From: Massalongia carnosa
Lineage: Eukaryota
Reading direction: 5' to 3'
DNA length: 64,000 bases
NCBI GenBank assembly: GCA_965645245.1
Contig: OZ287068.1
Location: forward strand, 1,550,001-1,614,000
Below are positions 33,887 through 58,321 of this stretch, piece after piece. The notes beneath the pieces were generated by a model that saw nothing but the letters and a program-made list of their open reading frames with translations, made no database searches and was not told where the DNA came from. Made by a program: the position numbers and the translations under genes. How positions within the stretch are numbered: the stretch's first letter is position 1; each line of letters begins with the position of its first letter.

Positions 33887-34044
33887 CCCTTCGTCTGGCA
33901 ATTTGGCAGCCACCTTAAACTGGCTTAGTGAGATACCGTAGGGCTGAGTCGCGAATGTCAAAATATTCTCCACTTTTTTTATAAATAAGAAGGTAAACAT
34001 CAGTTGAAAATCATTAAAACATCTACAATTTCTTTAGAATAATC

Positions 34045-34880
34045 ATGAGAGGCATTGAGAAAGAAGTTCCTGACCAATCAGACGCTTTGCACCCCTCAAT
34101 TCTGAAAGAACAGGCTAAAAAGAATAAACCCAGCGTACAAAGCATAATTGACTCCATGCCCTCTCCGTCATCAAATTATTGTCCAATTTCGATCCCATTT
34201 CGAAAACCACAGCCGGACGAGACGTTGCGCTTGATAAATCAGACTCCTTTCAGTTTATTCTGCCTCTTCTTTAGCTGTGAAATGCTTGAAAGCATAGCTA
34301 AAAACACCATTCTTAAAGCGAAAAAGAAGTATGCCCTTAACGACATCAAGAGACGTCAACGGCATGACACCTCTTCTTCTGAAGTAGGAGCTTTTCGGGT
34401 AATTATATTATATATGGGGTATACACTAATGCCACGTCTTACTGACTATTGGAACACGTCTCCTAAATTTGCCATACATGACATGGTGATTCAAGCCATG
34501 AGTCTTCGAAGATGGGAGCAACTCAAGCGATTTTTGAAGATATCCAACCCCGACGAAGATGAGATCATTGATACTCGAGGCCTTGATTGGTGGAAAAAGC
34601 TGGAACCATTGGCCACAGACTTTCGAAAAGCATCAAAGAAATACTGGATTCCTGGAAGTCATGTATCAGTTGACGAGCAATTGATTTTATTTAGGGGTAG
34701 GAGCTGCCCTACTATGCGAATAGGCACCAAGGCGGCTGGTATAGGCTTTAAAATCTATAGTTTATGTCAGGAATCAAACATTGATGACGGGGACATTCTG
34801 TGTATAGTATGGGTTGATTTAAACACCCTGCAATTCATGACCACGGTTCATACAATTGAGGAGTTGAAGACTTCTTTCTA
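34045..34880 (+). pseudogene. piggyBac transposase (DDE_Tnp_1_7-like), interrupted and probably internally deleted
   Basis: PFSLFCLFFS, RLTDYW, MSLRRWEQLKRFL, HVSVDEQLILFRGR, KAAGIGFKIYSLC, WVDLNTLQFMTTVH. Confidence 0.88.
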
Positions 34881-36169
34881 ATCGTCGGCTAGTGTAATGG
34901 GCTACGAGACTAGTAAGCTTATCACGAGCGACACTAATCTCGAAAGGGGAAATGCTCAGCGTGAGAGGAGGACGATAGCTACTACGTGCTAGTCTCCGAG
35001 AGTATATGTGATCCAAAGAACTACTGGATGTGGAAGTGCTTGGACCAAGAGATCTCGTCCGAGACCCAAACGTAGGTTGTTTATAGAATAAAGACTAATT
35101 GCTAACGAATACTACAAGATTCGTTCTGATATTTATCCTACTCACCCCAAGCCTATAGCCTTGGGAGCCTTGGAACCTTAGGAGCCTTGCAAGCCTTGGG
35201 AGTCTTGCGAGCATTATAGCCTTGCAATCCACATCCGACTTTATCGCATTACATCCAACCATCCCTCAGGATCCATCCACGAACTCGGCGTTCGCTGGAT
35301 CATCTAGTCAGCCTCGAGCAGCCTTCTAGATCTTCCCTTGCAAGGTAGAACAATTCTACCCCCGGCTAGATCCCTCACTACATGCCTCAGGCTATGTAGC
35401 TTTATTTCGCCGTCACCACTACCTAGTGATGGAAGGTTACCTCCGACTGAATACCTCGCTACACTGCGGACCTTACTCTAGACACAAGGTCTAGACAACG
35501 AGGTCATGTAGGTTCATTCAGCCGACATCACTACCAACGTAGTAATAAAGGTTAAAGCTGAAGTTTATACCAGGGAGCCTAGCTCAAGCTGCGTCCAGCG
35601 AGCCGTGCCTCCTGCTACCTCTCTTGATCCATCAAGAGATCCAGTAGCTCCGAGTAGGCCAGTAGATCCCATATAGAGTTCCTTTGCGTCTCCACAGGAG
35701 TCCGCCTTACACTCCATGGCAATCTACCACCACGGCCTCGACAAGTGTTTGATCTGTGAGTAGTCAAGAACGTGATAACAATAACTCCGAAGTTTCGGGG
35801 CAAGATGGCAGTGTGTCTGTGTAGCACGTCGACCTAGATAGAATCTAATAGGGACTATGTACGAAAACTAGTAAGATGAAGAAAGAAAGCTATGTACAGA
35901 TCGCCGGTTAATAAACACTCATACCCGTGCTAAGCCTAATGCAGGTTTTTATCACCGTCGTTGAACTGCTCAGACCACGCGTGTTAATAATATCGCTACA
36001 AGCAGTGCTAAATCCGTTTTCGGTTAGATAAGGTGAATAGCACTACGTCATGTGTTGCCTGAGGTTAGAGCGTTGTAATCCGTGACATTACCCCCTTCTT
36101 TAGATCGCGAATCACCTGATCGCGATTAGCGCCGTTCTTGTCAGGTGACGTAATTCCCGTTGACTGTTG

Positions 36170-39100
36170 TCAACCTGGTGCGAAATTCCACCGTGGTTTG
36201 CTAGGATAGCGCACATAGAAATCCTCCACTATCTCCTTAGCATTTTCAAATCCATTAGCATCGTACCAATCTGGATCTTCCGGATGGTCCTTCCATTTGA
36301 CTCGAAATTGCACCTTTCCTCTTCGCCTTCTGGCATCCAGCACGTCATCAACTTCCCATTCTTCCTTACCTTCTATCACTACCGGAGTGGCTGGATCATT
36401 GATCTGCCCTGGTAATGGATCCACCGCGGCCTTTCTCAATAGACTAGTGTGGAATACATTATGAATTTTCATCGATTCGGGCAGAGCTAGCCTGCACGAT
36501 AACCCAATCATCTTGTCTATTCGGTACGGTCCGATCATCTTGTGGTCCAGTTTCTTCGAAGTTCTCTCGGTATGGATATTTTTCGTTGACAACCAAACCA
36601 TATCGCCCTCTTCATAGCTGACCTCCTTTCGATTCTGATTAGCCACCCTTTGCTGTCTATCCTGCGACTTCTTCATGTTTTCGTGAACGAACTCCCAGGT
36701 TTTCTTCATCCTTTCGGTGATATTTTGGGCACGTTCCTTAGCTAACCTTTCTCGAGTAGTATCTGCAGATAGATCAACCACATCGAAACTTATCCTTGGT
36801 TCATATCCCTTTGTGGCCATAAACGGTGTCAACTTGGTGGAGGCCGATTCGCAAGCATTGGCCGCAAACTCCGCCATCGGTAGTAGCATCACCCAATCAT
36901 CCTGGAAATAGTTTACATAGCTGCGCAGGTGTCGCTCTATTTCCTGATTGGCTATCTCGCTCTGGCTATCGGTTTCCGGATGAAATGCTGTGGAGAGTTT
37001 GGCCGTTATACCCAGTATTTTGCACATCGTTTTCCAGACCGCCGATACAAACTGCGGTCCCCGATCGGATACTATGCTACTGGGCAACCCATGGTATTTC
37101 CAGACGTTATTGATCAACAACTTCGCCGTTGCTTCGCTCGTGGTTCCATGTTCCTCGGTAGTGCATGGTATGTAATGCCTTTCCTTCGATAATCGATCTA
37201 CCACCATAAGAATCGCATTGAATCCTTCGCCCGACAGTGGAAGGCCCGTTACGAAGTCTAGTGATATATCCTGCCATAGTTGTTCGGGTATAGATAATGG
37301 CCTCAACAAACCATTGTACTTATCTCTAGGTGCTTTCGCGCGTCTGCAAACATGACAATTCCGTATATACCGTTTGATATCCGCTTCCATTTTGGGCCAG
37401 TAGTAATTCCGAGTTATCATCTCCAAGGTTCGAGCGACGCCAGGGTGCCCTACAGCTGGCTGATCATGAATCTGACGGATTACCTCCAGTTTCAATTCAT
37501 CCTGTGCGGGCACCCATAGCTTATTCCGCTTGTATAGCAAGCCGTCCTTGACCTGACAGTCTTTTAACGCCGGCGAGTTTTCCGAGTCTGAATCAAGTCC
37601 AGTGCTTGCAGCACTCAATGCCTGACGCATATTATTGTAATCCTCATCTGTGACATTGCCCTGCCTTACCTTTTCTTCCAAGGTCTGAACAGTCTCTTCC
37701 GTTTCTGTCTCGATGGGCGCCAGTTCGATGCGATTGCGGGGCAACAGAGTCTGTAGCTGATGCTGTTGGCGTTCGTCCTTCTCATCCTTGGGCTTATCAT
37801 TGGGTCTCCGGGTTAGAGCATCAGCCTTTTCATTATTTTTACCCGTTTGATAAACGATGACGAAGTTGAACTCAGATAGGAATTCCGCCCATCTAGCCTG
37901 TCGACGGGTCAACTTTTTGGTAGTCATGAAAAATTCCAAACTCTTGTGATCGGTGAAGACCTTTATAGGTATTTCTGTGCCTTCCAATTCTGGTCTCCAT
38001 TGTTCAAAGCATCGAATGATAGCTAACAGTTCTTTATCGTAGATCTCGTAATTGCACTCGGCCGGGCTCATGTTCTTTGAGAAGAAGGCTACCGGATGCA
38101 ACTCGTCATCCTCACCCATTTGGGACAGAATACCCCCACTGACATAATCCGAAGAGTCTGTTTCTAACCAACACTGTAGTTTTGGATCGAAATGAGCAAG
38201 AACAGGTGCTTCCACCACTCGATCCTTCAGGTCCTGGAACCCCTGAGCCAAGCTTCGGTCTATTCGAAGATTCTATCCTTCTTGGCCAGTGCATTTAATG
38301 GTCCAGCTAGTTTGGAAAAGCCTCGAATGAAGCGCCGATAGAAGTTGCAAAAACCTATAAATGATCGCACCTCGCGAAGACAGGTAGGAACGCTCCATTC
38401 CATGATAGCCTTTATCTTTTCCGGGTCCATCTTGATACCATCCGTGCTGATGATCAGGCCCAAATACTTCGTTTCAGTGACGTGGAATTCACACTTATCC
38501 ACATCGGCTTGAATGCCTGCCTCTCTTAACTTGGTGAGCACTCCCCTTACATGCTGACGGTGTTGTTTCAGATTTCTGCTATAGATCAGAATGTCATCCA
38601 GATAGGCCGTACAAAATTTGTCTAAGTATTCAAAGAGGACATCATTAATGAAGTGCTGCCACGAAGCCGGTCCTCCAGTCAATCCAAATGGTAACACCTT
38701 GTATTTATAGGCCCCAAACCGTGAGTTGAAGGTGGTGAGGTCCTCCGACGCAGCCTCCATCCGAAGTTTATGAAAGGCCTGACGAATATCTATTTTGGAG
38801 AATATTTTAGCCTCTTTCAACTGAGCCAACGTTTCCTCGATCAAAGGTATTGGATAACGATCCTTTTTAGTGATCTGATTCAGCCTTCGGTAATCTACGC
38901 AGAACCGTAATCCACCACTAGGCTTTTTCGCTAACAGAATGGGCGATGAGCATGCGGCATGGCTTGCTTCGATAAAGCCTTTTCTGAGATTGTCTTCTAG
39001 ATATTTCTTGACAAACTCCAGTTCTTTCTGGGACATGCTCCGAAGAGGACTATATCCATGATCTTTGCCCCCTTCGAGCAGTATCTTGTGATCATGCAAT

Positions 39101-39981
39101 CTATGAGGTGACAACGTATCAGAATCTATCTTCGAAAACACGTCCAAAAACTCGTGATACTCCGGCGGCACTACCAACTTTGGATCAGTAGGAGGCCTCG
39201 ACTCCTTATTCAACTGATCGTCTATGTCCTTCATCGAGATCGCATAGACTTTTACCGCCTTACAGTGAGTAAGGTATCGGTAGGAGTCTGCACCAATGAT
39301 GGCTACATCAACCGGTTTAGATGGTTTCGGATCGATCCTCGGAACTTCCTTTGGGATTGGAGTAGCCTCCGGTTTATCTTCCATGATAGATCGACGCAAT
39401 ATCTTTCGGGGTGAGATTACTGTAGTCAACTCCTCATCCGTCGATTTTTTATCGATCGTTTCCAGTTTCCTAGGAGGTTCTATCAACTTAGGAGCACCCG
39501 GGTGGGTGCAGTGTCCAGGCCAGAACATGATTTTATCGCAACTCATGTCCATAATGACTCCATGCTTTCGCATCCATGGTTTTCCTAGTATCATTTTATG
39601 CTGCCCCAGCTGTGTAATCAACAGAGGCGAGATTGTTTCCCTATGATTCTGCACGGTGAGGGTAGGATAGATGGCGTGGGTGATAGGTTTACCCAAGCGG
39701 CCATCGAAACATCTCACCGGCTTCGGTTTCGTCAATCGCTGCGGTGATAGTTGCAGTCGTTCACAAATCGTGCGCACCATCTTTTCATCAATAAAAGCAT
39801 GTCCTGTAGCACTAGTGTCTAACAGAGTAACAAGCTCTATTTCTTCCTGGTTGCCTAGTTTACATGAAGTAACAAGAGGTTCATCGGTAAACAAATCACC
39901 AGGCAAACAAGAGGATGAGATCAAAAGAGGTTTATCATCGTCATCTCCACTCGCGTCTTCGAGGGAGATCAGTCTTTTTTT
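36170..39981 (-). pseudogene. pol: Gypsy pol: PR-RT-RNase H-IN-chromodomain, with a nonsense codon and 1-bp deletion at ~38250-38262
   Basis: LLDTSA, RFCVDYR, YLDD, ETDSSD, HHCC, SDRGPQF, EWEVDDVLD..VKWK. Confidence 0.93.
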
Positions 39982-41249
39982 GACTTCGGCTCAACATCTA
40001 ACTCGTTAATGATGGCTGTCATCTTTGATTTCTTTTTAGGGCAGTCCCTTGAGGGATGTCCGACCTCCTTGCAATTGAAGCACTTCCCTTCCCTGCTCAA
40101 CCGCTCCCGTTCCGAGTCCGATAGATAGGATCCTACGGTCCAGGACGACAAGGTCGATGGTGGTGAAGGGGCACGAGACTCGGTGCGAGCATTTGGTGCC
40201 ACATAGGTTTTGCTTTCGGTGGTAGCGGTAGGGGTGTTCGCCGGGACCACTACGCTGGTTGGTTTTTTTCCTTCGGCAAAGCGTTCCATCCTAGCCTTGC
40301 TACGATCCACATCCTTCAGAGCCTGATACATGCGCTGGCAACGCTGAGCGAACGCATATAGGTCGGTTGGTTCGTGATCGCCGGTGGCTAGCTGACGGCG
40401 CATATCTAGGTTGAGCTTGTGTTTCAACTCACCGATTAGGGTAGACTCATTGTGATCCAACTCGGCGGCCAAACGCTGAAACTCCGCCCAAAAGGTATTG
40501 AAGTCCTTTTGACCCTGTCGCAGAGAACGGAATAGGTTCATGGCAGTCTGTTTGCGGTTCGGATCTCCATAAATTCGTTCCAAATGATCAAACATTTCCT
40601 CTGCAGTAAGAAAAGGTTTGATAGCATTTTTTCGGAGACGAGGTTCCAAATGGCCCATAGCCTCTCCGCCGACTCGGTTTTCCACATAGGCCTTTTTAAA
40701 TAGCTCGGTAGGCATATGGTCTTCATTAGCTGCTAATTTGCTGCGCATTTTAGTCAACCAATGATCGATACTCGGTTCTTTTCCATCGATAAAAACCGGT
40801 GGGTCGGGAAGTTTCATCGACTTCCATAAAGATTCTTCGCTCTGATTGGATCGTGCAGGGGAGCCCTGCAGGTCATGTGGAGGTGGAAATGGTGGTGGTG
40901 CATTACTCCCTGCAGGTGCAGTAGCTGCTGTGGCCATCCGCCGAGCCTCTTCAAGTTCTTCCTTCTGGTATTCAATCATACCTGCTTGGCGATTGATTTT
41001 GATCTGACTATCTTCTAAACTAAGCACAAGCTTATTATGTTCCACCACGACCTCCTCATAGTCTGACTTCATGTCTCGTATTATAGCCAAGACTGTTTCA
41101 GCATCCTCCTGCACCCAGTGCCGAAGATGTTGTACTGTTTCTATCCTCCATGGTGAGTCAGCCCCGGGGCCTTCTTCACCGATGTCTATGGGCGGGATGA
41201 GAGACTCCCGTTGATAGTAGGTGGGTGTTTCGTTCGCGGATCTAGCCAT
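39969..41249 (-). CDS. gag: Gypsy Gag, 426 aa
   Basis: KLPDPPVFIDG, LRQG, CFNCKEVGHPSRDC zinc knuckle. Confidence 0.92.
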   Translation of the reverse strand: MARSANETPTYYQRESLIPPIDIGEEGPGADSPWRIETVQHLRHWVQEDAETVLAIIRDMKSDYEEVVVEHNKLVLSLEDSQIKINRQAGMIEYQKEELEEARRMATAATAPAGSNAPPPFPPPHDLQGSPARSNQSEESLWKSMKLPDPPVFIDGKEPSIDHWLTKMRSKLAANEDHMPTELFKKAYVENRVGGEAMGHLEPRLRKNAIKPFLTAEEMFDHLERIYGDPNRKQTAMNLFRSLRQGQKDFNTFWAEFQRLAAELDHNESTLIGELKHKLNLDMRRQLATGDHEPTDLYAFAQRCQRMYQALKDVDRSKARMERFAEGKKPTSVVVPANTPTATTESKTYVAPNARTESRAPSPPSTLSSWTVGSYLSDSERERLSREGKCFNCKEVGHPSRDCPKKKSKMTAIINELDVEPKSKKD

Positions 41250-41456
41250 TTCTATCGCTCTTCCTTACTCAGCTCTGTTGAGTATAGTCCAGTTTCGTTC
41301 GTTTTCGGATTGTTATCGGATCTACTATCATATGCTGAGGATAGTCCTAGGATTTCGGATCTGGTTCGTGTTTCGGGTGCTGACTGCCTGACGGACTGAC
41401 ATACAGTTGGGTGGATTGTTTTATATCCTCCACAAGGGATAGCAAGATTTAGAGTG

Positions 41457-41468
41457 ATCTTACTAGTT
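41457..41468 (-). other. Self-priming-type primer binding site of G1
   Basis: Element-sense AACTAGTAAGAT, 1 nt after the 5' LTR, is complementary to LTR sequence at 41517-41528. Confidence 0.8.
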
Positions 41469-42125
41469 GTGTAGCACGTCGACCTAGATAGAAATCTAAT
41501 AGGGACTATGTACGAAAACTAGTAAGATGAAGAAAGAAAGCTATGTACAGATCGCCGGTTAATAAACACTCATACCCGTGCTAAGCCTAATGCAGGTTTT
41601 CATCACCGTCGTTGAATTGCTCATACCACGCGTGTTAATAATATCGCTACAAGCAGTGCTAAATCCGTTTTCGGTTAGATAAGGTGAATAGCACTACGTC
41701 ATGTGTTGCCTGAGGTTAGAGCGTTGTAATCCGTGACAGTCAGCCTCGACGGCTTATGCGACTTCGTACTACGGCATGGTCCACGCTAGTTAATCCCGCA
41801 ACCGCCATAGGCGATCACGTATCCCTCTAGCGCCATCCGTATTACAGCTAGCTTAGTGTGATCCGACTCGGAGGCCGTCGCCTCCTAGTCGGGGAAAGCG
41901 ATTTGCATCCGGAAAGCGATTTGCATCCACTCAAACTGAAATTTTGATCATTTTTCACCTTTTACCCTCAACTACATTGATCAATCATTACTTAATATCG
42001 TAAAAAGCTTGAAAGTATCGTCGTCGTCATCGTTGTCATCAAAATTATCCCTCCCCCTCAATTTCCGATCCTTTATTATCCCATTTGCAACTTTCGAAAA
42101 GAGGTTTTCAACCTCCCTTCGTACC

Positions 42126-43092
42126 ATGGAAAATAATGCCTCAATCTTGGTTTCCACTCTCAGCCCCATGAAAAGATTGGAAGAAGCGAAGAAATTTCTG
42201 ATTGATCATCCCGAAGAAAGCAAGGCTGCTGCGTCAAAGATCTACAATGTCAACGTTAAAACGTTGACGTCTTTTATTCGTCATTATCCGAAAGAAGGAC
42301 AGAAAAAAGAAGGGAAAAAAAAGGGGGGAGAAAATCAGATACTGAAAGAGCATGAAGCTAGGGCTTTAGATAGATTCATTAAATCCTTATTGATACATGG
42401 AATTCTACCTACGCATCATATGGCTTTTAATGCTATTGTAAGTCTGAGAAAGGCTCATAAATTAAAAGCTCCATTAAGACGATGGTTTCGGTCTTGGTGG
42501 AAACGTAACAATTTACACAAGATTAAGACCAAACCATTACCAATGATTCGCTTTGAAGCCGCTGAAGAATCAGATGTGATCGAATGGTTTGATGGCTACA
42601 AAGAGGTATTGAAAGAATTGAAAATCAGAAGAAGACGAAACATTCTAAACTTTGATGAAGCTGGTTTTCGAATTGGATGCATGAAGGGTCAGGAAATCTA
42701 CGTTCCTATGGAAATCAAGCAATTCTACGCCGTCAGCCCGGAGAATCGCAGATCTGCGACGGTCATTGAGACGATCAATACTGCTGGCGACTATCCCCTC
42801 CCCCCATGATCATTATACAGGGTCAGGAAATCATGGCGACGTGGTTTTCGGAGGATTTGCTGGTGGGCACGCGTATTGTGCCTTCCGACAGTGGTTTTAC
42901 ATCTGCTAAGATAGCAATTGAATATTTGAAGCATCTTATTCAAAATTCGGATGTAGGACCTAATGCAGATTGGAAATTGCTCCTGATGGATGATCATAGC
43001 AGTCACGTTACTCCTGAATTTGTACTTCTGGCCAATGAAAATCACATTCGTCCCTACCCACTAATTCCACATTTGACTCATTGCATGCAGCC
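42126..43092 (+). pseudogene. Fot1/pogo transposase N-terminal part (HTH, first two catalytic Asp)
   Basis: ILNFDEAGFRIG, LLLMDDHSSH, HCMQP; frameshift near 42806; cut by LINE L8. Confidence 0.92.
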
Positions 43093-44701
43093 GACGTAAC
43101 ACGCAACCGCATTATCGAATGTAATCCTACGCCTGAACAACAAGAAACACAAGTACCGCAACTTTTGATACACTATAACTTTAACAGTCAATTGAGCCTC
43201 TATTTCTCAGTCATTTGCGCTCCTCCAGAGTTAAAACGCTCTCAGATTGAGTGTAGGAGAGCTCTAGCAAAGCTCCAGCAGAGTTTTTCTGCTGGTCGCA
43301 CGCAACCGACGTGATAAAGCGCGCTCTAGAAGTTGGAAAAAACAACAAATACCAACAACCTCACCAAAAATCGCTCTTTTTTCTTGTTTTCTTCTGTTCT
43401 GTTGTCGCATGACCTTCAATTATTACTATAAAAATTATCTACAAAAATTATCTACTCTCGCGGGACTGTACAACAACTGTCGCGACGTCAGAGTCTTCTA
43501 AAGTTCATTCCTCATTTAAGGTTACGGGAACTTCCGCAAGCACAAATTTTCATAGCATATTTCACGTATAATTTTTGCACATTCCATTTTCGGCTTTATA
43601 GATCTTCGTTGAACGGCCGGTCAACAGATCACTGAAAAGAAGGGTAAAAACGTCTGGAATAGGATTATACCAAAAGTCCTGTTTCAGATTAATCAGAATA
43701 GGAAGTCTCCTATTGTCTTACATTGCATTAAAATTTATCTTTATTGAAAAAAGCAAAAAAAAAAAAAAAACTTTCATTATTTTCACCTATTGTAGTGTCT
43801 GGTAAAGGGTTAAATAAGACTTACTGCCTTAGCGAGGAACGGTCTATTTTAACCCGATTAGGATTTATTTGACGCGTTATAGTCAAATAAATAGGGATAG
43901 GAAAGAAAGAGTCATTTGACCAGTAAACAAACAGGTGTAAATTCTATTCTGACTAGTACGTCCGGGGAAAGTCAGAATAAATTATTTGGTGGCGATAAAA
44001 GGGATATTGCAAAGGCAAAAACACTATGCTCAATCGAAGATTTAACCCGATAGGTCATAGACCAAATCGATTGATACCAACAACTCCTCCCCCAGGCCCC
44101 CCTCCACAACATCTATGGGTCCCCCCGAGTACTCCCCCGTGCCCCCCCCGAACCGACTCCCCCACGCCATCTTCGGTAGCGATAATTGGGAGCAACCCCC
44201 TAACCGTAGAATCCACGGAGGCCATGGACCAAACGCGAGAATTTTCGTCCGCACCGTCCACACCCACCCCAAAAACGAAACCTTTTGTCGCGCCATCTGG
44301 TGAATTCAGTACCAATCTGCCCATGCCATCATTGAATTCTGATATTCGACTGAGTCCACCAATTAAACGCAACAAAAGACGAACATTTGACGAACATTCG
44401 ATTGAGAGTCAAGAAGTCATCAATCGATCAAAATCGATTCAACTATTGAATACGGCAAAAAATGCATTATTAGAGTCATTCGTAATAGATCAAAACCCCG
44501 AAACTGTTAGAATGTACAAATCAGGTTACTTCATTTCAGCCGCACTCACCTTCTACCGCACGAGTATGGCGCACGCTAATGGCTAGACGTATCGCTAGTC
44601 TAATACTAGCATACCGTACATTGTCTATAAATCTAGCTATTCCCACTATATAGAACAACAGCAAGCGTTCTATCCTCTATCTACTATACTACCTTTTGAT
44701 A

Positions 44702-44716
44702 GGTTATGAGCCCGGC
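44702..44716 (+). other. Copia PBS complementary to the anticodon arm of initiator tRNA-Met (half-tRNA primer type)
   Basis: GGTTATGAGCCCGGC directly after the 5' LTR, like the Ty5/copia PBS. Confidence 0.85.
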
Positions 44717-44968
44717 CGCAGGGCGCCTCTTTACATGTGTTTGCTTGTCTTACTTTACCTACCCTAACACAAGCCTCCTTACCGTCGCAAACAATTACCG
44801 TCGCGAATAATCTCCTACAAAAAAATCCGACACAAATCGACACATATGAAACAGTCGGCAGTGTTTGAGATGGCTAAGCACTACTATCGGGCGCCCGGCT
44901 TCTTCTTTGCCCCTTACTAAACGAACGCTAACAAATATTTTAACAGGCACCTCCTTGCACTTCGTTTC

Positions 44969-45293
44969 GATGTCTCGGATGATCTACATTCCCCACAAAA
45001 AACCGGGAATGTGACATCCAGATGTCTCGGATGATCTACGTTCCCAATAAAAAACCGGGAATGTGACATCCACTTCACTTTGATGTCTCGGATGATCTAC
45101 ATTCCCAACAAAAAATCGGAAATGTGATATCCAGGTGTCTCGGATGATCTACATTTCCAATAAAAAACCGGAAATGTGACATTCACTTCGATGTCTCGGA
45201 TGATCTACATTCCCAACAAAAAACCGGGAATGTGACATCCAGATGTCTCGGATGATCTACGTTCCCAACAAAAAACCGGGAATGTGACATCCA
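44969..45293 (+). repeat. Six 52-bp palindromic repeat units (three dimers) in the Copia leader
   Basis: Units start at 44969, 45021, 45082, 45134, 45190, 45242. Confidence 0.95.
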
Positions 45294-45896
45294 TTGGGAT
45301 GAAACCAAATCTCCCTGTAATCGATTTTGCCCTCTATTCATAGTCAGCATCTGCGTATCAGTTATAAGACTGCAGGATTATGGCTTCGAGCAACAAAAAA
45401 CGCTCTCGATTTATCAACCCCAAAGGCACAACTAAACGCCTCAAATCTATCTTTGCACCTGCATCTGCTTCTGCGTTTAGATCTATTATATCAATCACTG
45501 CCCCATTCCTACGTGGCACTCTTGCCGAGATCCAATGACTCTCAGAGCCTCAACCAAATAATAGGCCGGCAACAAGGCTTGAACGGGATTCACAACATAC
45601 ATTACAGGCGGCTAGTGCGGAAATCGTTGCTTTCTCTTAGAGGATAACTCAGATCAATCAAAATTGGATTGCTTTGTACCATCATCCCTGAGCCTCCAGT
45701 CACTCCCGGTCAGTCCACATCAAAATCGGACCTAGAACCGCCCAGCGACTGTGATCCTTTCGATCTAAGAGCCATAACCAAGTCACCAAGCACTTATAAT
45801 AGCACTCCGTCGGAATCCGGTAAAACCAAACACCAGTTCAAGCCAGTCCGTTAACAAGGACAATCCATTAAGCTCTTCCAATAAACCCTTTCCATC

Positions 45897-48800
45897 ATGA
45901 GTGAAAAAATCTCTGGATCGGGGTCCTATAGCGCTATTGATAGGATCCCTAAGCTAGTGGACCACGAGGGTTATCCAGCATGGAGGCGAGCCATGCGAGA
46001 TTGCCTCAAAATGATAGATCTTTGGATCTATTGTGATGACACCGAAGCTGCACCACGCCCAAACGCTCCCAATGATGGCTTCAACAAATGGAAAAAGGGC
46101 CAAGATAAGGCCTGCACTGCTCTACGATTAGCTTGTGAAGGAAATGCCTACACCGATATAGAAGACCATACTACTGCTTCCGTCGCCTGGGACCTGCTTG
46201 AGTCAAACTATAAGCCTCGCGGTTCGGGATTCCTCAATGACACCTTTAGAAAATTAGACAACCTTATCCTATCGGATTGCAGCAGCCCTGCAGACTACGT
46301 TACCCAATTTCGCGCCACGGCTTCGAATACAACAGCTATTTCGAACGATACGCTCAGGATCATGATCCTTTCAATGAAATGGGTGAACCCAAGCACACGT
46401 TAAGTCAGGCTATGCAGCATTTCCAAAACACGGTGACCAACCCAAGCAAGTCCAGCGATAAGGCCGTAATCGCAATGGCAGCTGTTTCAAACGCTCAAAC
46501 CCAAGCAGGAGCTCAACCCGGAACAGCCCATTCTCGAATCATCACCAAGACCATCAAGTTCTGCAACCACTGCCGAAAAGACTATCACGTAGAGAGCGAG
46601 TGTCGTGAAAAATATCCACACCTCGTTAACCAAGACTCACAGCGTAAGTCCAATAAGCGTCGTAGGAATTCCAAAAGTCAAGGTCAAAGCCAAAAGCCAA
46701 CCGGAAACAATGACTCAACCAAAGGAGCCTTCTGCGCCTACATGGCCACCGCAGATATAACCAAAATATCTAAGCTCTGGATCTGTGACTCTGGAACTAG
46801 CCAACATATTACCCACGATCGCTCCATCTTCACCTCATTCAAGACATCCGATTGCCCTCCAATTCAAGGTATTGGAGGAGTATTAATTCCCAAAGGAATA
46901 GGTAACGTCATGTTGCGGTGTGCCGGTAACGAGGGTCTTCGGGAGTTCCCTCTTTTCGATGTGTTATACGTTCCGGACGGAGGCCTAAATCTCATCTCCC
47001 AAGGACAATTACAACGAGATGGATGTCCCCTGAAGATTGTACCAGAGGGAATTGAAATCGGGAACTATGGTATTATCGCTCGCCGCCAGGACAACAATCT
47101 GTATATCCTGAATATGTGGAACGTCTCTGAAGCCGCTCTCGCTCTTGCTGCAATTAATAGCGAGGCGATAAAAATGTGGCACGCTCGTTTAGGCCATCTT
47201 GGAAATCAAAACATTCTCAAGCTCGCTGGCATGTCAAAAGGAATGGACCTCACCAAGCCCCCGCCCCAAGACGCCTGTCCTCCGTGCGCTATCGCTCAGT
47301 CCCAAGTAGAACCACACCGGGCCCCCATCCAACCAAGCAAGCACCCGCTGGACTTAATTCACAGTGATGTCCAAGGACCTTTCCCAGAAGCCTTGAACGG
47401 CGCCAAATATATGGTGATCTTTCTTTGCGATTTCGATAAACGGTCCCACGTCACCTTACTGCGCGTCAAAAGCGGAGTCCTTCAAGCTTTTAAAAACTAC
47501 AAGAAGCAAAATGAATATGGGGACAAACGAATTAAGCGCTTGCGATCGGACTGTGGGGGTGAGTATGACTCCAAGGACTTCGAGAATTTCAGAAACGAGC
47601 ATGGCATTCAGTGGGAACCTACCGTACCGGGAAATCCACCCATGAACGGGACAGCCGAGCGCCTAGGTCAAACGCTTCACAAGTTAGCCAGCACCATGCG
47701 AGAAGGCGCTAAACTAGACATCAAATATTGGGCTGAGATGGTTCTCACTGCCAACTACCTAAGAAATCGACAACCAACTGCGGGACGCTCCATCACCCCC
47801 TACGAGTCTCACACCGGCAGCCTACCAGAACTAGGACATCTAAGGATAATAGGACAGACTAGCTATGCACAAAATCGCAAGCCCTCCACCGGATGGAAGA
47901 AATTTCAGGAACGAGCCACCAAATGTACTTTAGTAGGATACGAAGGCGATCACATCTATCGAATGATAAATCCACGGGGCGCGGTCATGCGTTATTCCAA
48001 TGTTCAGTGGATAGATAACAACCCCCCAACTCCTCCTTCCTTATCATTCTCTCAAACTAAAAGAGCCCTACATGTTGGACAGTCAGGACCGCCCACAAGG
48101 AAGCAAAAAATTACCCATCATACGGACTCCCCTCATACGGACTTAGTCGACGCTCATGAATCCATAGAATCAATTCCCACTGGACCTCTCCCATCAAACG
48201 CTGGAAAAGAGGCATTGGCAAACCAACTGCCCATTGAGCCTTGGTCCCAGGCAGATATTCTCTCTAAGCATCCAAAACTTCGCGCCCCCTCGCCTGACCC
48301 GCTTGCTCTTTTGGCTCTTCTTGCTCGAGCCAATGACCCGGAGCCATACGAGCCTAAAACCTATAAACAGGCCGTAGATAGTCGGGAGGAAAAGGATTGG
48401 CGAAGGGCAATGCAGGAAGAAATTGACTCTATCAACGAAAATGATACCTGGATCCTCACCTCCCTGCCCCCGGACCGCAAAGCCCTGCGAGGCAAATGGG
48501 TTTATAAAATCAAACGAGGCCCGGCTGGCGAGATTCTTCGTTACAAGGCTCGATGGGTAGTCAGAGGCTTTGAGCAACGTGAAGGCATTGACTACAATGA
48601 GACTTTTGCTTCAGTAGTGAAGCCAATGAGCTATAAAGCCATCTTCGCTATCGCTGCAGCCAATGATTGGGAAATCCACCAAATGGACGTAAAAACAGCC
48701 TTCTTGTACGGAAGGGTGGACGAGGAAATCTACGTGGAGCAACCAACCGGTCTGGATGACGGGTCAACGAGAGTTTGCAAGTTGAAGAAAGCTCTTTATG

Positions 48801-49942
48801 GCCTGAAACAGTCGTCTAGAATCTGGTATGAAACGATCACTACTTTTTTCAAGTCTCATGAATTCGTTCCAGTCAACGCCGACCTTAGCGTTTTCGTTAA
48901 AGAAGGGGTTATCGTAGCCATTTACGTCGATGATTTAATCATCACTGGCTCTTCTTCTTCCGAGATACAACGTGTCAAGAAACTGCTGAGTGACGAGTTC
49001 TCGATGGTTGATTTAGGCCCTATCAATTACTACCTGGGCATGACGATAACTCGGGATCGGGCTAATAGGATTCTTCGCCTTGGTCAGCAGGCCTATCTGG
49101 AAAAAGTACTACGCGACCATGGCATGTGGGACACTAACCCCGTGGCTACCCCGATGGATGGGCGACTGGAGGCTGCACCAGAGGGCCATCAGGCCACAGA
49201 TGACTCTCGCCTCCGCTACCAATCAGCGGTGGGCTCTCTCATGTATGCTATGCTAGGCACTAGGCCTGACTTAGCCTACGCCGTATCGGTGGTCAGCCGC
49301 TATGCCTCGAACCCGACCGATACGCACTGGAAGGCAGTCAAACGCATCTTTCGATACATCAAGGGCACTCTACCGTTGCAGTTAACATACAAAGGTCACT
49401 TACAACCCTTGAACGGTTACACTGACGCGGATTGGGCCGGAGATCATCATACCCGAAGGTCTACCTCAGGCTTCGTGTTTAATGTGGGTAGTGGCGCTAT
49501 TAGCTGGTCTTCCAAACGACAACCGACCGTAGCCCTATCTTCATGCGAAGCCGAGTACATGGGTCAGACTCAAGCCACCAAGGAAGCCGTCTGGCTGTCT
49601 AGTCTTCTCGACCAACTTTCAGCACCTCAAGTCCCTGGGATACACTCTCTCCAAACCCAGAGCACCTCTGTAGCCCTTGGCTGCTTGCCTACATCTTTCG
49701 CCCTAAATGCTATCATCATTCACTGCGACAATCAAGGAGCAATAGCTTTGGCCAAAAATCCCCAGGCACACGCGCGGAGCAAGCATATTGACATCCAATG
49801 GCACTACCAAAGAGAGAAGATCGAAGACAAATCAGTGGAATTTCGCTATGTTCCTACCGAAGAACAGGTAGCTGACGGCCTAACCAAGGCCCTACCAAAG
49901 GACAAATTTGTTGTCTTTCGAAAAGCTTTAGGCTTAGAATAA
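45897..49942 (+). pseudogene. gag-pol: Copia gag-pol (Gag, PR, IN, RT, RNase H) with one frameshifting deletion in gag
   Basis: CNHCRKDYHVESEC, DSGTSQH, WHARLGH, IHSDV, YVDD, YTDADW, RSKHIDI; 79-bp deletion at ~46319 relative to C1. Confidence 0.93.
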
Positions 49943-52900
49943 ACCAGAAGCCCTTTGTCGTAAAAAATTCGACCTTAACCCAAAAAAAAAAAGTATCACC
50001 CACAGCTGAGCCTGTGGGGGTGTTTTCGTACATCGCCAGCAGCATTAGCCTGCGGAGTACACTGACTCACCTGCAGGTGATCCACTGGGAAGCATGATAT
50101 TATACTGGAGTATGTGGGAGTTATTGAATTTCTCTTTATCATGTGGGAGTGCTATTTCAGTGCCTGAGTGGGAGTGTTAGAATGTACAAATCAGGTTACT
50201 TCATTTCAGCCGCACTCACCTTCTACCGCACGAGTATGGCGCACGCTAATGGCTAGACGTATCGCTAGTCTAATACTAGCATACCGTACATTGTCTATAA
50301 ATCTAGCTATTCCCACTATATAGAACAACAGCAAGCGTTCTATCCTCTATCTACTATACTACCTTTTGATAGAAACGGCTATGGTAATCGATCACGTCAA
50401 TTCTCTACTGGCAAAGAAATCGATCAAGCCAAAAGCAACGTTAGAAATGATTGATTGGAAATTGAATAGGGTGCTAGAACAAACTAGCCAAATTCCAGAA
50501 ACAAAGAGACAATCGGTGCATCCTATACAGACAAAATCGAAGGGAAATTCAAATGGAAATTCGAATTTGACTCAAAACGTCAACCCAGAAATTCGGAGCG
50601 AAACCGCCGGAGTCCCAGGGCCGCAGGTCAACGATACAGCTAGAACATGGAGCCAAATGCTCGGAAAAGCGACTGTCAATTCCGAAAATTGGACTACCGT
50701 TCCTCGATCCAAAAAAACAAACAAGAACAACAACAATAATTCGAATGCGAACAAATTCGATAATACTGACGATTTCAAGGCGATCAAATCTCGACGATTG
50801 ATAATCACACCGAAAGCTCAAATCGGCGATATCGATTCACTGTTGCTTCGAAACCAAATCAATTCGCTTTTTAAAGACGCGAAATTGACTATCGTTGTTA
50901 ACACGGTCGAAAAGTCCAAAACGGGTCAAAACATCGTTCTGACTACTAGTCCTGATAACACTGCTGAAGATTTATTGAACAATAAATCAATATGGGAGCA
51001 TTTATTCGACCCACGAACAGTTCGAAAGGACGAATCGTGGTTCAAAGTCGTCGCACACGGTGTAAATATTGCAACATTTGATGAAAACATGCAATATTTG
51101 CAAGACGAAATTCAAAAGTTCAATTCGAACATGCAATTATGCGATGTTCCCAGATGGCTAGCACGTGATCGTCATAACAAGATCAAATCATCCGTTGTTT
51201 TGACATTCAATGATCGAAATATGGCCTTGAACGCGTTAAAAGGAGTCAATATCGCGGGCCGACATTGTGACACGGAAATATTTACCTCCGTTCGTCCAAA
51301 CACACAATGCATTAATTGTCAAAAATTTGGACACAAGCATTATCAATGCAAAAGTCAAGCGAAATGCAGCATATGTGCGCAAAACCATGAAACACGCAAT
51401 CATGAATGCACAACATGCAAGTCAAAAATTGCTTGTGCACACGCCGTCGTCAAATGCGCGAATTGCAACAAGAATCATCAATCCAATGATGAAAATTGTG
51501 AAATGGTTATATCGTTAAATGTTCGAAATCGACTGACGAATTAGCCGCTTTGTAATGGCAGGACAGCATTCGTTGACAAACATCGAAAATACACAAAATG
51601 TTAAATTTATTCAACATAATTGTGCAAAGTCAACGAATGCAATGATATAGTGTTTGGAATATGCTTTATCAAATCAAATTGATATTGTTTTGTTTCAGGA
51701 ACCATGGACACGAGATCAAAAAACAATATCACATCCGTCATTTACATGTATTATGCCAAAAATAGCGACTTATCGCTCGAGAGTAGCTATATTTGTCACA
51801 AATGGCAATTCCAAACTGCAATGCACGCCTAGAACGGATCTTATTGACGATTCCGATATGCAAATTATTGAAATTACAATTGATGAAGTTCGAAAAGTGC
51901 AGATTTTCAATATTTATAACGAAAAAAGTCAAAGTGATCGAGAAACATACACGATCGATCGACTTTTAATCCAATTACAACCAAAATCAACTGATCAATT
52001 CGTCATCTGTGGAGATTTCAATGCACATCATAACTGGTGGAATTCGAAAATTCAACAAGCAATTCGATCAGAAAATCTTGTCAAATGGTTGAAATTAAAC
52101 AGGTGTAGCTTGATAAACACACCTGACTTATGTACATACTACGCCCATTCTGGAAGTTCTTCATCTGTTATTGATTTAACTTTTGCAAATTCTAAAATCG
52201 AAAATGCAATTACAAATTGGTCAATCGATGAAAACGCAGTCACAGGTTCTGATCATGAAGTCATCCGATTTGAACTAATCGCATCTTTCAAAAACTTGAC
52301 GTCACATGCAACCGCATTATCGAATAAATACAATTGCAATAAAGCTGATTGGAATAAATTCGCGAAGTATCTAGACGAAAATTCAACCATCTACGAATCA
52401 CAAGTTCAAAGTTTATTGAATAATCATCAATTCGACGAATCAGCGATATATTTGCAAAACGTTATCAAAAACGCGGCTGAAATGTTTATTCCGAAAACGA
52501 AAATTTGTGCAAAATCGAAAAATTGGTGGTCGCATGATTTAACTGAACTTCGAAAAACCATGTGCAGACATCGTCGAGAATGGAAGAATTATCCGTCCGA
52601 TTTTAGTCATCGGACGTTTAAACATAGTCGAATCGAGTATTTTCATGCAATTCGAAAAGCAAAACAACAAACATGGTTGACTTTTCTTGAAAATGCAGCA
52701 AATAAAGATGTATTTACCGCGTATAAATACACTAAACCGCGAATATTCGAAAAAATACCGCCGATTCTACATGAAAACAAGCTAAATGTTCAGTTTGATG
52801 ACAAATGCGATGCATTTGTGTCAGCAATGTATACAAAAAACCCATTTATTGACGATAATGAGGAAGGTTTATCAAATCAAGACAGCGTAAATGATGATAA

Positions 52901-54307
52901 TTGGCCAGATTTGACCGAAAACGAGTTGAAAAATGCGATTAGTTTATTTAATCCGAAGAAAGCATGTGGACCTGATGCAATCAATTTTACAATTGTTCAA
53001 AAATCGTTTCAATCGTTGAAAAACGTGTTTTTCATGATTTATTCGAAATTCATTCGAATCGGTTATCACCCGTTATGCTGGCGGACAGGACTCGGTGCAG
53101 TTCTGAAAAAACCTAATAAATCGGACTATTCGTTTCCAAAATCATATCGAATTATCACATTATTAAATTGTCTTGGTAAAATTGCTGAGAAAATCGTTGC
53201 AAATCGACTAGCGTACTTCGGCGAAAATTCGAATTTACTCGATATCGAACAGATGGGCGGACGCAAAAATCATTCTGCAATTGACGCAGTAATAAACGTT
53301 GTTCATGATATTGAAATTGCAAATAGAAATAAAAACGTCTTATCATGTTTATTACTCGATGTCAAAGGCGCATTTGACTTTGTCTCGATTAATCAACTGC
53401 TAAATGTTATGAAAAAGCTGAAATTATCTCGCATAATAATTCAATGGGTCAAGCATTTCATGACAAAGCGATCGATCAATTTGATATTTGATGAAAATTT
53501 AAGCAAAACATATTATGTCGAATCAGGAATTCCACAAGGCTCACCAATCTCGCCTATTCTATTTCTGATTTACATTCGTCACTTGTTTCCGAAAATACGA
53601 ATGAAATTCAATGCACATTCTCCCAGTTTTATTGACGATGTTGCAATATATGTCGAAAATAAAACTGCAAAACAGAATTGCAAAGAAATCGAAATCATAG
53701 TCAAAACGGCCTTTGATTGGGCCGCATCGAATAATGTCAAATTTGATGACGATAAATCCGAGCTGATTCACTTCGAAAAGACAAGAAATGTATCGAAAGA
53801 CACATTGGAATTACCAAACGGGACAGTACTAGAACCGAAAAATGTAGTCAAATGGTTGGGCGTCTGGTTAGACCGAAAACTAAATTTCAAAAAACACGTC
53901 GAAACGCGGATCTCTTCTGCGAATCGATCGTTTTTTGCAATTCAGAATTTGATGAAATCCGAATGGGGTCTGAAACCGACCGCATGCAGACAGCTCTATA
54001 TGTCATGCATTATTCCTATTTCGGACTACGGCTCAGAAATTTGGTATAATGGTCAAAAGAAATATGAAAAACTTTTTTTTTTTTATTTATTCATTAAGTG
54101 TATTCAACCTAAGGTTATGACACTAAACTATTTTAGGATATGTTTCTATATTACAAATAAATCAACCCTTTATAACCCATCTATGTATTGTCAATTTTTC
54201 CCCATTTTTACTCCGTGTTAGTAACAACCTATAGTAATCGAAGAATATCGATTTTAAAATTTGTCTTTGTAAGTTCGTGAATGTTTCAGCATAAATCGTT
54301 TCTGATT

Positions 54308-57300
54308 TTACTGTTCGATCTCTCCCCAACCTCCAGTTTCGAAAATCTCGTCATCAAGCTGACCTAGTATCCATTTTCTAGTCGCGATTTTGTTATTGAC
54401 AATGAATTTAATCAAAATGTCATTTCCGATTTTTGTATTAAACAACATATTCAAGTTGATCGTAGTATCGATGGTTTGTTTCATGTTTTGAATTTCATCG
54501 AAATAGTGAATGCAATTCAATAACAAGTGTTCTGGCGTTTGTCGTTGATTGCATCGATTTGAGCATTTTGACGAATTATAATCTTTCAATCGATGTAAAT
54601 ATGATCGAAAATAGCCGTGTCCGAATTTTAATTGCATAATAGTAGCAAATATCAATTTGGAACAGTTGTTTGATAAATAATAAAATCTCGATATGCCAGG
54701 TTTCATTTCGAATTTCTCGTAGTATTTGCCTTTTGATTTGCATTGTTGCCATTGATTCGTCCATGTGGTTAGCATATTTTGATTTATTTGATCTTTTACA
54801 TAATCAAATGTTATAGCCGAGGACTCGACTAGGATTTGATTATGGCCCGTCTTTGCTATTTTGTCTGCAATTTCGTTTTCGGTAATATTCGAATGACTCG
54901 GAACCCATTGCAAAATCACCTGATAATTGCTTTCAAATAAGCGTTTTGCGAGCTTTCGAATTTGTCTTGCGAAAATATGATTTTTCAAGTTCTGAATTTC
55001 GTTTATCGCGTTTATACTATCAGAAAAAATCCAAATCGTTTTTTCCAAGTTCGATAAAATATTAGTATTAGACAATTTATAGACCCATTTCATTGCTTGT
55101 AAAATTGCATGCAGTTCAGCATTTTTAATGCTTGACTGTTTGCTTAATTTCCAGCTTTTCGAAATCGTATGATACTTGATCAGACAATCTTTTTCGATAA
55201 ATCGATCAAAATTATTGATAATACTACTCCAATTCCTCATAATTGGCGCAAATGTGACTGCAGACGTTGCAAATTCGATTTTCGATCCATCTGTATAAAG
55301 TAAAACTCGGGATTTATCGGAGTTCATTGATTTAATTTTGGATAAGGTCGAATAATAACTTGATTTAGCAGATTCCTTTGTATTTTCGATTTGAAATTTG
55401 ATTTTGCAAGGCGATTTCCAAGGTTTAATAAAATGATTTGATTGTTCAAATTCATCAGTTTTGTGAACTATATCGGAAACGGAATGAAGAACGCGAATAA
55501 GCTGACTAGGATGTCGTTTATTTGTTTGTTTTTCGTCTTCGTTCCATTCGGCATATTTGTTGTTCCATAAACTTGTGTCAAAACCGATATTTTCGAATTT
55601 TATCGAATATGTGTTTGGAATTCTTTGACAAATAGGGTTATTTTCGGCAATCTTCAATAATCGAATTGCGTATTTTTGATTTTTCATTAATAATCGAAGT
55701 TTAACTGGTAAAACATGTGATTCAATTTCCATCGCCTGAATAGGTGTGGTTTTGAAAGTTCCTAAAATCTTTCGAATCATTTGATTTTGTAGGTTCTGAA
55801 ATAGTTTTTCATATTTCTTTTGACCATTATACCAAATTTCTGAGCCGTAGTCCGAAATAGGAATAATGCATGACATATAGAGCTGTCTGCATGCGGTCGG
55901 TTTCAGACCCCATTCGGATTTCATCAAATTCTGAATTGCAAAAAACGATCGATTCGCAGAAGAGATCCGCGTTTCGACGTGTTTTTTGAAATTTAGTTTT
56001 CGGTCTAACCAGACGCCCAACCATTTGACTACATTTTTCGGTTCTAGTACTGTCCCGTTTGGTAATTCCAATGTGTCTTTCGATACATTTCTTGTCTTTT
56101 CGAAGTGAATCAGCTCGGATTTATCGTCATCAAATTTGACATTATTCGATGCGGCCCAATCAAAGGCCGTTTTGACTATGATTTCGATTTCTTTGCAATT
56201 CTGTTTTGCAGTTTTATTTTCGACATATATTGCAACATCGTCAATAAAACTGGGAGAATGTGCATTGAATTTCATTCGTATTTTCGGAAACAAGTGACGA
56301 ATGTAAATCAGAAATAGAATAGGCGAGATTGGTGAGCCTTGTGGAATTCCTGATTCGACATAATATGTTTTGCTTAAATTTTCATCAAATATCAAATTGA
56401 TCGATCGCTTTGTCATGAAATGCTTGACCCATTGAATTATTATGCGAGATAATTTCAGCTTTTTCATAACATTTAGCAGTTGATTAATCGAGACAAAGTC
56501 AAATGCGCCTTTGACATCGAGTAATAAACATGATAAGACGTTTTTATTTCTATTTGCAATTTCAATATCATGAACAACGTTCATTACTGCGTCAATTGCA
56601 GAATGATTTTTGCGTCCGCCCATCTGTTCGATATCGAGTAAATTCGAATTTTCGCCGAAGTAGGCTAGTCGATTTGCAACGATTTTCTCAGCAATTTTAC
56701 CAAGACAATTTAATAATGTGATAATTCGATATGATTTTGGAAACGAGTAGTCCGATTTATTAGGTTTTTTCAGAACTGCACCGAGTCCTGTCCGCCAGCA
56801 TAACGGGTGATAACCGATTCGAATGAATTTCGAATAAATCATGAAAAACACGTTTTTCAACGATTGAAACGATTTTTGAACAATTGTAAAATTGATTGCA
56901 TCAGGTCCACATGCTTTCTTCGGATTAAATAAACTAATCGCATTTTTCAACTCGTTTTCGGTCAAATCTGGCCAATTATCATCATTTACGCTGTCTTGAT
57001 TTGATAAATCTTCCTCATTATCGTCAATAAATGGGTTTTTTGTATACATTGCTGACACAAATGCATCGCATTTGTCATCAAACTGAACATTTAGCTTGTT
57101 TTCATGTAGAATCGGCGGTATTTTTTCGAATATGCGCGGTTTAGTATATTTATACGCGGTAAACACGTCTTTATTCGCTGCATTTTCTAGAAAAGTCAAC
57201 CAGGTTTGTTGTTTTGCTTTTCGAATTGCATGAAAATACTCGATTCGACTATGTTTAAACGTCCGATGACTAAAATCGGACGGATAATTCTTCCATTCTC

Positions 57301-58321
57301 GACGATGTCTGCACATGGTTTTTCGAAGTTCAGTTAAATCATGCGACCACCAATTTTTCGATTTTGCACAAATTTTCGTTTTCGGAATAAACATTTCAGC
57401 CGCGTTTTTGATAACCTTTTGCAAATATATCGCTGATTCGTCGAATTGATGATTATTCAATAAACTTTGAACTTGTGATTCGTAGATGGTTGAATTTTCG
57501 TCTAGATACTTCGCGAATTTATTCCAATCAGCTTTATTGCAATTGTATTTATTCGATAATGCGGTTGCATGTGACGTCAAGTTTTTGAAAGATGCGATTA
57601 GTTCAAATCGGATGACTTCATGATCTGAACCTGTGACTGCGTTTTCATCGATTGACCAATTTGTAATTGCATTTTCGATTTTAGAATTTGCAAAAGTTAA
57701 ATCAATAACAGATGAAGAACTTCCAGAATGGGCGTAGTATGTACATAAGTCAGGTGTGTTTATCAAGCTACACCTGTTTAATTTCAACCATTTGACAAGA
57801 TTTTCTGATCGAATTGCTTGTTGAATTTTCGAGTTCCACCAGTTATGATGTGCATTGAAATCTCCACAGATGACGAATTGATCAGTTGATTTTGGTTGTA
57901 ATTGGATTAAAAGTCGATCGATCGTGTATGTTTCTCGATCACTTTGACTTTTTTCGTTATAAATATTGAAAATCTGCACTTTTCGAACTTCATCAATTGT
58001 AATTTCAATAATTTGCATATCGGAATCGTCAATAAGATCCGTTCTAGGCGTGCATTGCAGTTTGGAATTGCCATTTGTGACAAATATAGCTACTCTCGAG
58101 CGATAAGTCGCTATTTTTGGCATAATACATGTAAATGACGGATGTGATATTGTTTTTTGATCTCGTGTCCATGGTTCCTGAAACAAAACAATATCAATTT
58201 GATTTGATAAAGCATATTCCAAACACGATATCATTGCATTCGTTGACTTTGCACAATTATGTTGAATAAATTTAACATTTTGTGTATTTTCGATGTTTGT
58301 CAACGAATGCTGTCCTGCCAT
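54308..58321 (-). CDS. LINE ORF2 polyprotein, 1337 aa (APE-RT-RNase H-Zn knuckle)
   Basis: Uninterrupted ORF with all catalytic motifs. Confidence 0.96.
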   Translation of the reverse strand: MAGQHSLTNIENTQNVKFIQHNCAKSTNAMISCLEYALSNQIDIVLFQEPWTRDQKTISHPSFTCIMPKIATYRSRVAIFVTNGNSKLQCTPRTDLIDDSDMQIIEITIDEVRKVQIFNIYNEKSQSDRETYTIDRLLIQLQPKSTDQFVICGDFNAHHNWWNSKIQQAIRSENLVKWLKLNRCSLINTPDLCTYYAHSGSSSSVIDLTFANSKIENAITNWSIDENAVTGSDHEVIRFELIASFKNLTSHATALSNKYNCNKADWNKFAKYLDENSTIYESQVQSLLNNHQFDESAIYLQKVIKNAAEMFIPKTKICAKSKNWWSHDLTELRKTMCRHRREWKNYPSDFSHRTFKHSRIEYFHAIRKAKQQTWLTFLENAANKDVFTAYKYTKPRIFEKIPPILHENKLNVQFDDKCDAFVSAMYTKNPFIDDNEEDLSNQDSVNDDNWPDLTENELKNAISLFNPKKACGPDAINFTIVQKSFQSLKNVFFMIYSKFIRIGYHPLCWRTGLGAVLKKPNKSDYSFPKSYRIITLLNCLGKIAEKIVANRLAYFGENSNLLDIEQMGGRKNHSAIDAVMNVVHDIEIANRNKNVLSCLLLDVKGAFDFVSINQLLNVMKKLKLSRIIIQWVKHFMTKRSINLIFDENLSKTYYVESGIPQGSPISPILFLIYIRHLFPKIRMKFNAHSPSFIDDVAIYVENKTAKQNCKEIEIIVKTAFDWAASNNVKFDDDKSELIHFEKTRNVSKDTLELPNGTVLEPKNVVKWLGVWLDRKLNFKKHVETRISSANRSFFAIQNLMKSEWGLKPTACRQLYMSCIIPISDYGSEIWYNGQKKYEKLFQNLQNQMIRKILGTFKTTPIQAMEIESHVLPVKLRLLMKNQKYAIRLLKIAENNPICQRIPNTYSIKFENIGFDTSLWNNKYAEWNEDEKQTNKRHPSQLIRVLHSVSDIVHKTDEFEQSNHFIKPWKSPCKIKFQIENTKESAKSSYYSTLSKIKSMNSDKSRVLLYTDGSKIEFATSAVTFAPIMRNWSSIINNFDRFIEKDCLIKYHTISKSWKLSKQSSIKNAELHAILQAMKWVYKLSNTNILSNLEKTIWIFSDSINAINEIQNLKNHIFARQIRKLAKRLFESNYQVILQWVPSHSNITENEIADKIAKTGHNQILVESSAITFDYVKDQINQNMLTTWTNQWQQCKSKGKYYEKFEMKPGISRFYYLSNNCSKLIFATIMQLKFGHGYFRSYLHRLKDYNSSKCSNRCNQRQTPEHLLLNCIHYFDEIQNMKQTIDTTINLNMLFNTKIGNDILIKFIVNNKIATRKWILGQLDDEIFETGGWGEIEQ

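Follow-up and report, generated by a model that had tools for sequence, protein, structure and literature searches.

A 28-nt piece of another LINE subfamily heads a full-length LINE in a fungal transposon nest and may derive from a lost donor

Sequence foreign to the element has been described at the 5' ends of LINEs in several systems. In human L1, 5' tags of 10 and 18 nt are identical to the upstream flank of the donor and have been ascribed to initiation upstream of +1. Such short 5' transductions identify donors; they are said to account for <0.1% of L1-Ta insertions, and for 3/14 in one exceptional family (PMC6425141). Zorro3 of Candida shows 5' extensions initiated upstream as well as switches to other RNAs (PMC3510499), the MGL/WEIRD chimeras of Magnaporthe join a full-length 5' partner to a 5'-truncated LINE (PMC2104539), and 5' template jumps are mentioned for ZfL2-2 with reference to unpublished data (PMC2666801). 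In R2, the template RNA carries up to 36 nt of host 28S flank at its 5' end (PMC3774820). A literature search, mostly of freely available papers and of their main texts, revealed no fungal Tad-like LINE in which short 5' flank tags are described as frequent; passages of PMC10191854 contain nothing on 5' tags.

Here we describe the 5' end of one LINE copy, L8, in a window of 64,000 nt (C2:1550001-1614000, on contig C2 of a 25-contig, 52-Mb assembly; labels such as C7:575530 give assembly contig and position). The window is a nest in which LTR elements, DNA transposons and three related LINE types (A1, A2 and B, ~80-89% alike) occur together. Most of contigs C1-C22 have one main dense nested LINE cluster, with a few outliers. 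Because they lie mostly in one cluster per contig, the clusters suggest centromeres; centromeres made of transposon clusters are reported for 34/49 fungi (bioRxiv 10.64898/2026.09.17.752431). The window also contains a Gypsy element (35818-41738) with a weak chromodomain match and LTRs 98.5% identical, and a piggyBac-like DDE_Tnp_1_7 fragment (34018-34881).

Pfam matches identify endonuclease, RT and RNase H domains in ORF2 of L9, a young A2 copy, while Pfam returned no match for ORF1. A motif scan detected cysteine-histidine motifs in both LINE ORFs: those of ORF1 are zinc knuckles, that of ORF2 is a C-terminal CCHC. We take the traits of the Tad clade to be two ORFs, an AP endonuclease, RT, RNase H, cysteine-histidine motifs (zinc knuckles in ORF1, a C-terminal CCHC in ORF2), an A-rich tail and TSDs of 11-16 bp, and by domains and motifs the window LINEs appear to fit this fungal clade. 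Over 6.8 kb, no more than 0-3 bases distinguish L9, C11:1265661, C7:563977 and C7:601115; the family was therefore active very recently. Private substitutions of A2 copies genome-wide (n=693) comprise C>T 207, C>A 151, A>T 126, A>G 102, C>G 62 and A>C 45; a RIP-like excess is absent and C>A changes are numerous.

L8 is a full-length Tad-like LINE of the A2 subfamily inside a DDE_1 transposon; it starts at 43093, and its tail ends at 62618. Its features, in window positions, are as follows.

41847-43092, + strand: host DNA transposon (DDE_1 type, inverted ends), left segment; the transposon resumes at 62619-63960
43079-43092, + strand: left TSD of L8, 14 bp, from which public contigs continue as the empty site
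43093-43120, + strand: 28-nt tag, a sense piece of B-type ORF2 just past the endonuclease domain, source step T-G
43121-43123, + strand: spacer of 2-3 nt, no template identified
43124-44504, + strand: normal A2 5' end of L8, 5' UTR and start of ORF1
44505-50371, + strand: Copia-type LTR element in L8, identical LTRs, 5-bp TSD
50372-54073, + strand: middle part of L8, where 52298-52325 is the A-type counterpart of the 28-mer
54074-60872, - strand: L9, inserted antisense into L8; a young A2 copy of full length with a 13-bp TSD and both ORFs open
60873-62618, + strand: 3' part of L8 and A-rich tail
62619-62632, + strand: right TSD of L8
26380-26407, + strand: closest match to the tag in the window, in the B-type ORF2 of L5, uninterrupted there and so not a donor junction

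Both copies of the 14-bp TSD, cattgcatgcagcc, are intact, and the host reading frame is continuous across it (HCMQ/PLDVG); the host protein matches DDE_1 with E 2e-4, just below the Pfam cut-off. In public contigs from 3/4 runs, 43092 joins the right-flank sequence directly, which is the empty site, and 43104-43120 is uncovered in 4 runs, a gap that counts neither for nor against the tag; no RNA run was listed among the public runs. Since these contigs pass from 43092 directly to the right flank, the tag is not host DNA. It contains gacgt, which resembles host D-V codons; an origin as host transposon sequence is ruled out by the TSD together with the empty-site contigs. The right LTR of the Copia element (44505-50371) terminates in TA, not CA, ahead of the 5-bp TSD.

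A sequence-only reading of the window had proposed that L8 starts with a 28-nt piece of a different LINE subfamily, and this was borne out. The tag is identical to B ORF2 (26380-26407, sense) at 27/28 positions, whereas A-type ORF2 agrees at 26/28, as does the copy within L8 itself at 52298; the number of chance matches expected is 0. The difference from B, an A at tag position 6, is private to L8 and present in no other genomic copy. The contrast between cacg in B-type and catg in A-type copies, on which that reading had relied, was also confirmed in fetched DNA: C occurs in 16/16 B-context copies and T in 62/64 A-context copies, with 7 further matches, L8 among them, set aside for want of clean context. 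The two A-context exceptions read catacg, not cacacg, and cacacg is confined to B context. The B assignment depends on this single site.

The foreign sequence had been taken to reach 43128. This holds for the tag and not for the end, as A2 elements normally begin with the atcct of 43124-43128: the form atcc(c/t)acgcc is found in 8/41 A2 copies, so that only gt(a), 2-3 nt, of the presumed 8-nt spacer is unexplained. The 28-mer itself occurs at 1/42 A2 ends, that of L8 alone, which rules it out as part of the normal A2 5' end. L8's extra sequence lies inside the TSD and 5' of a full-length element, as in a 5' transduction; equally, tag and LINE are two transcript-derived parts in the same orientation within one TSD, as in a template-switch chimera. 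The G of the T-G source step is itself templated, hence there is no cap signature.

A search for the L8 junction across the genome, exact and with 3 mismatches, found it to be unique, with no donor in the assembly. At the B position no right-hand scar (tail plus TSD) was detected, the one match being an intact variant B copy, and among the 42 A2 5' ends (41 from one search and one added later) no sibling carries the tag. The donor A2 copy in B ORF2 and the tag-sharing siblings that had been predicted are thus both absent from the assembly; the sequence-only reading had held that this outcome would favour template switching, so transduction is not shown for L8 itself. We do not file L8 as a proven 5' transduction because the donor is lacking; a lost donor is possible. 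In the A2 tree (29/41 copies, with 11 short rows and one divergent chimera excluded) L8, which has 14 private SNPs in 6751 nt, is placed in a polytomy whose other members carry other extras. The sole copy with L8's atccT variant, C5:1951151, has no tag and lies in a different host, which weakens the case for transduction.

To place L8 among its relatives, the 5' junctions of full-length copies were collected. In all, 105 full-length 5' ends were fetched (41 A2, 32/56 A1 and 32/46 B), and the insertion boundary was set for 33. Extras of at least 8 nt (8-39 nt) are present in 22/33 boundary-resolved full-length copies vs 1/10 truncated ones (Fisher p 0.003), the latter being hand-curated controls from which rows of host homology or wrong length were dropped. 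For long tags the same comparison, 7/33 vs 0/10, is not significant (p 0.17). Extras end <=54 nt from the anchor, a figure whose weight is limited by a TSD search confined to 110-400 nt upstream; traced tags start at -24 to -40 and that of L8 at -45. In the source sequence, the tag starts at a Y-R step in 9/11 hand-picked templated tags, that of L8 included, against a background of 0.24, and in 6/8 unambiguous tags (p 0.003; 3 of the 11 are ambiguous). The contrast with truncation points, 9/11 vs 3/9 (p 0.065), is weak, and tag boundaries were set by eye. G is the first extra base in 13/33 copies (p 0.003 against 0.18; 0.05 against 0.25), which is only suggestive.

Fungal siRNAs are 20-25 nt long with a 5' U; the tags, at 11-43 nt and with a purine as the usual first base, do not fit, and siRNA-sized acceptors are ruled out. 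L5, here taken as the B copy at 23165, had been cited as a second instance of a 5' tag. Its extras have no traceable source (best match 10-12 nt) and lend the idea no support. Directly ahead of the A1 copy C14:885044 stand ~20 nt from the 5' end of B, either as a tag or because this copy was inserted into the start of a B copy. Among the extras of C14:906024 are 13 nt that match the junction flank of C6:1804408 exactly, though the tree sister of C14:906024 is C20:823105; this match may reflect a jump onto the 5' end of another copy, or a reused site.

Several tags could be traced to donors. C7:575530 carries, inside its own TSD, 9-11 nt of the TSD of C15:1035003 followed by that copy's extras (40/40 nt). 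C15:1035003 keeps both copies of its 14-bp TSD, and the direction from C15:1035003 to C7:575530 is fixed because the shared bases are the donor's target site, as in a 5' transduction. At the start of C7:615215 stand 17 nt from the LINE that flanks C15:1019921 in antisense (38/39 nt). The tree sisters C1:1792814 and C14:832033, the latter nested in A1 ORF2, have in common a 27-nt junction and 24 exclusive SNPs (bootstrap 100). We infer the direction for C14:832033 and C15:1019921, as both are nested donors without a right TSD. Neither C1:1792814 nor C14:832033 has a clean TSD of its own, and for this pair a tag-guided switch in the opposite direction is possible. Shared extras also delimit a clade of C3:1246092, C11:1283500 and C17:863267 (bootstrap 99). 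Among A1 pairs there are no exclusive SNPs in common and the tree is star-like; SNP sharing in A1 and B did not resolve parents.

LINE-derived tags of at least 16 nt number seven, two with a donor and five without (L8, C20:823105, C8:1615593, C5:1926173 and C6:1793649, the status of the last two coming from inspection of all 42 A2 ends). Donors are retained for copies as old as, or older than, the donorless ones. The proposal that 5' tags record parent loci is supported by other copies (C7:575530, C1:1792814 and C7:615215) and not by L8 itself. Its companion, that nests act as sources, is likely and yet close to automatic, because 74/105 full-length 5' ends lie in another LINE (41 sense, 33 antisense); it is supported but expected, most copies being nested.

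We lean, with modest confidence, towards a short 5' transduction as the origin of L8's tag, the donor having been nested in B ORF2 and since lost. An earlier A2 copy would have sat in sense in B ORF2 with the junction ...ttatcgaat/gta/atcctacgcc. The internal promoter of that copy would have started transcription ~30 nt upstream, at the T-G step within the B sequence, and the RNA, reverse transcribed to its 5' end, would then have been inserted in the DNA transposon. The donor would later have been lost by rearrangement of the nest or by chromosome segregation. Loss is plausible because nests are rearranged by inversions and deletions.

Transduction is favoured for L8 because the same process is seen in other copies of this family and extras are nearly confined to full-length copies, because 9/11 tags start at Y-R, as transcription starts do, and because the -45 start of L8 lies close to those of the traced tags. 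PyPu is reported as the preferred Pol II start (PMC9504043). The private A also argues for transduction: a host copy lost along with the donor fits it better (~20% likely) than later mutation alone (~6%). The case is weakened because L8 has no donor junction, scar or sibling and 5/7 long tags need lost donors, and its support is limited by the p values of the Y-R contrast (0.065) and long-tag contrast (0.17) and by the delimiting of tags by eye. A target-site score of the putative donor nick was uninformative, the preference being weak and two donor controls scoring like L8.

A plausible rival, which we judge somewhat improbable, is a template jump during 5' joining: the RT would have run off the A2 RNA, added gta, copied 28 nt from B RNA or from nicked B DNA in the nest, and then joined the target, so that no nested donor is called for. 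The absence of donor, scar and sibling, and the five donorless tags among seven, are as a jump would have it. So are the patchwork extras of C5:1926173 and C17:863267, some of the extras having 1-4 nt of microhomology to the TSD, and the different extras of the tree sisters C14:906024 and C20:823105; precedents are provided by Zorro3 (PMC3510499), the Magnaporthe MGL chimeras (PMC2104539) and ZfL2-2 (PMC2666801). On the other hand, no copy here whose parent is known shows a newly gained LINE tag of >=16 nt, and extras are almost missing from truncated insertions. Neither the Y-R starts nor the narrow range of lengths is predicted by a jump, and the A variant is in no B copy. The Magnaporthe chimeras, moreover, consist of a full-length 5' RNA and a truncated LINE, the reverse of L8's anatomy.

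It is quite unlikely that the tag is a host repair patch, that is, a microhomology-mediated templated insertion from LINE DNA of the nest during or after integration. B copies do lie 17-34 kb off in the same nest, and nests are heavily rearranged; but the TSD is intact, microhomology is absent from both ends of the tag, extras are largely limited to full-length copies, and no local template exists within 300 nt (best match of the flanks 7 nt, p 0.7). Very improbable are an origin in A-type ORF2 of L8's own RNA, which matches at 26/28 with the subfamily decided by one site but needs a second change and lacks the B-only cacacg, and an assembly artefact, the junction being known from the assembly, but the same anatomy recurring at other loci with clean TSDs.

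Short 5' transduction would be the preferred account of L8, and the reading as first proposed is upheld in part: for sister copies, and not for L8's own transduction, for which the assembly has no donor. Our conclusion is a modest one: the tag is genuine, its origin unproven, and known mechanisms suffice. For this fungus as a whole, we consider it an even chance that full-length LINE copies normally arise with a short 5' transduction. The promoter would fire 10-40 nt upstream, and 5' ends would grow by accretion of the parents' flank and junction bases, recording which nested copy spawned which, vanished donors such as L8's included.

The nests themselves bear marks of rearrangement. Left and right TSDs are swapped between LINEs of opposite orientation 29-48 kb apart, in C17:821026(-) and C17:843260(+), and likewise in C11:1283500 with C11:1331444 and C10:1391203 with C10:1435781; swapped TSDs are the mark of inversions by recombination inside nests. 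C14:837589/832033 and C7:2119088/2111066 each combine the 5' part of an outer element with an inner element of full length, the two sharing one 3' end and one TSD; either a deletion joined direct copies within the nest, or a single long chimera was inserted. C5:1926173 with C5:1951151, and C14:832033 with C1:1792814, are mosaic, with blocks of shared SNPs in one half of the element, a pattern that suggests conversion, or a homologous switch from one copy to another. An identical or almost identical nick in a host LINE is reused in C1:1799605 and C17:856481, and in C14:825247 and C7:608505; these are independent insertions, despite an overall target preference that is only weakly AT-rich.

Young LINE copies here are 99-100% identical and their trees star-like, so that internal SNPs rarely reveal parents. 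Flank tags do so for at least three pairs across contigs, from C15 to C7 twice and between C14 and C1. If the clusters are centromeres, LINE copies nested in one centromere are transcribed and give rise to insertions in others, and the proportion of donorless tags would measure the turnover of nests.

Both mechanisms are already known; what is new is the frequency of the tags in centromere-like fungal nests and their use in linking parents to daughters. The LINEs resemble those of the Tad clade (Neurospora Tad, Magnaporthe MGL) in their family features, a likeness set by domains and motifs. The short tags taken from the donor's upstream flank resemble those of human L1 (PMC6425141). In contrast to the <0.1% stated there, 22/33 resolved full-length copies here carry extras, at least three of them traced, and the flanks are mostly other LINEs; the donor of L8 is missing. 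With Zorro3 and MGL/WEIRD, L8 has in common foreign RNA-derived sequence fused 5' of a LINE within the TSD. It does not have the make-up of the MGL chimeras, since L8 is a full-length LINE and its partner an internal piece of 28 nt. With R2 the likeness lies in upstream host flank carried at the 5' end (PMC3774820). R2 is site-specific, and its flank anneals to the target and vanishes, whereas here the targets vary and the flank remains as a visible tag.
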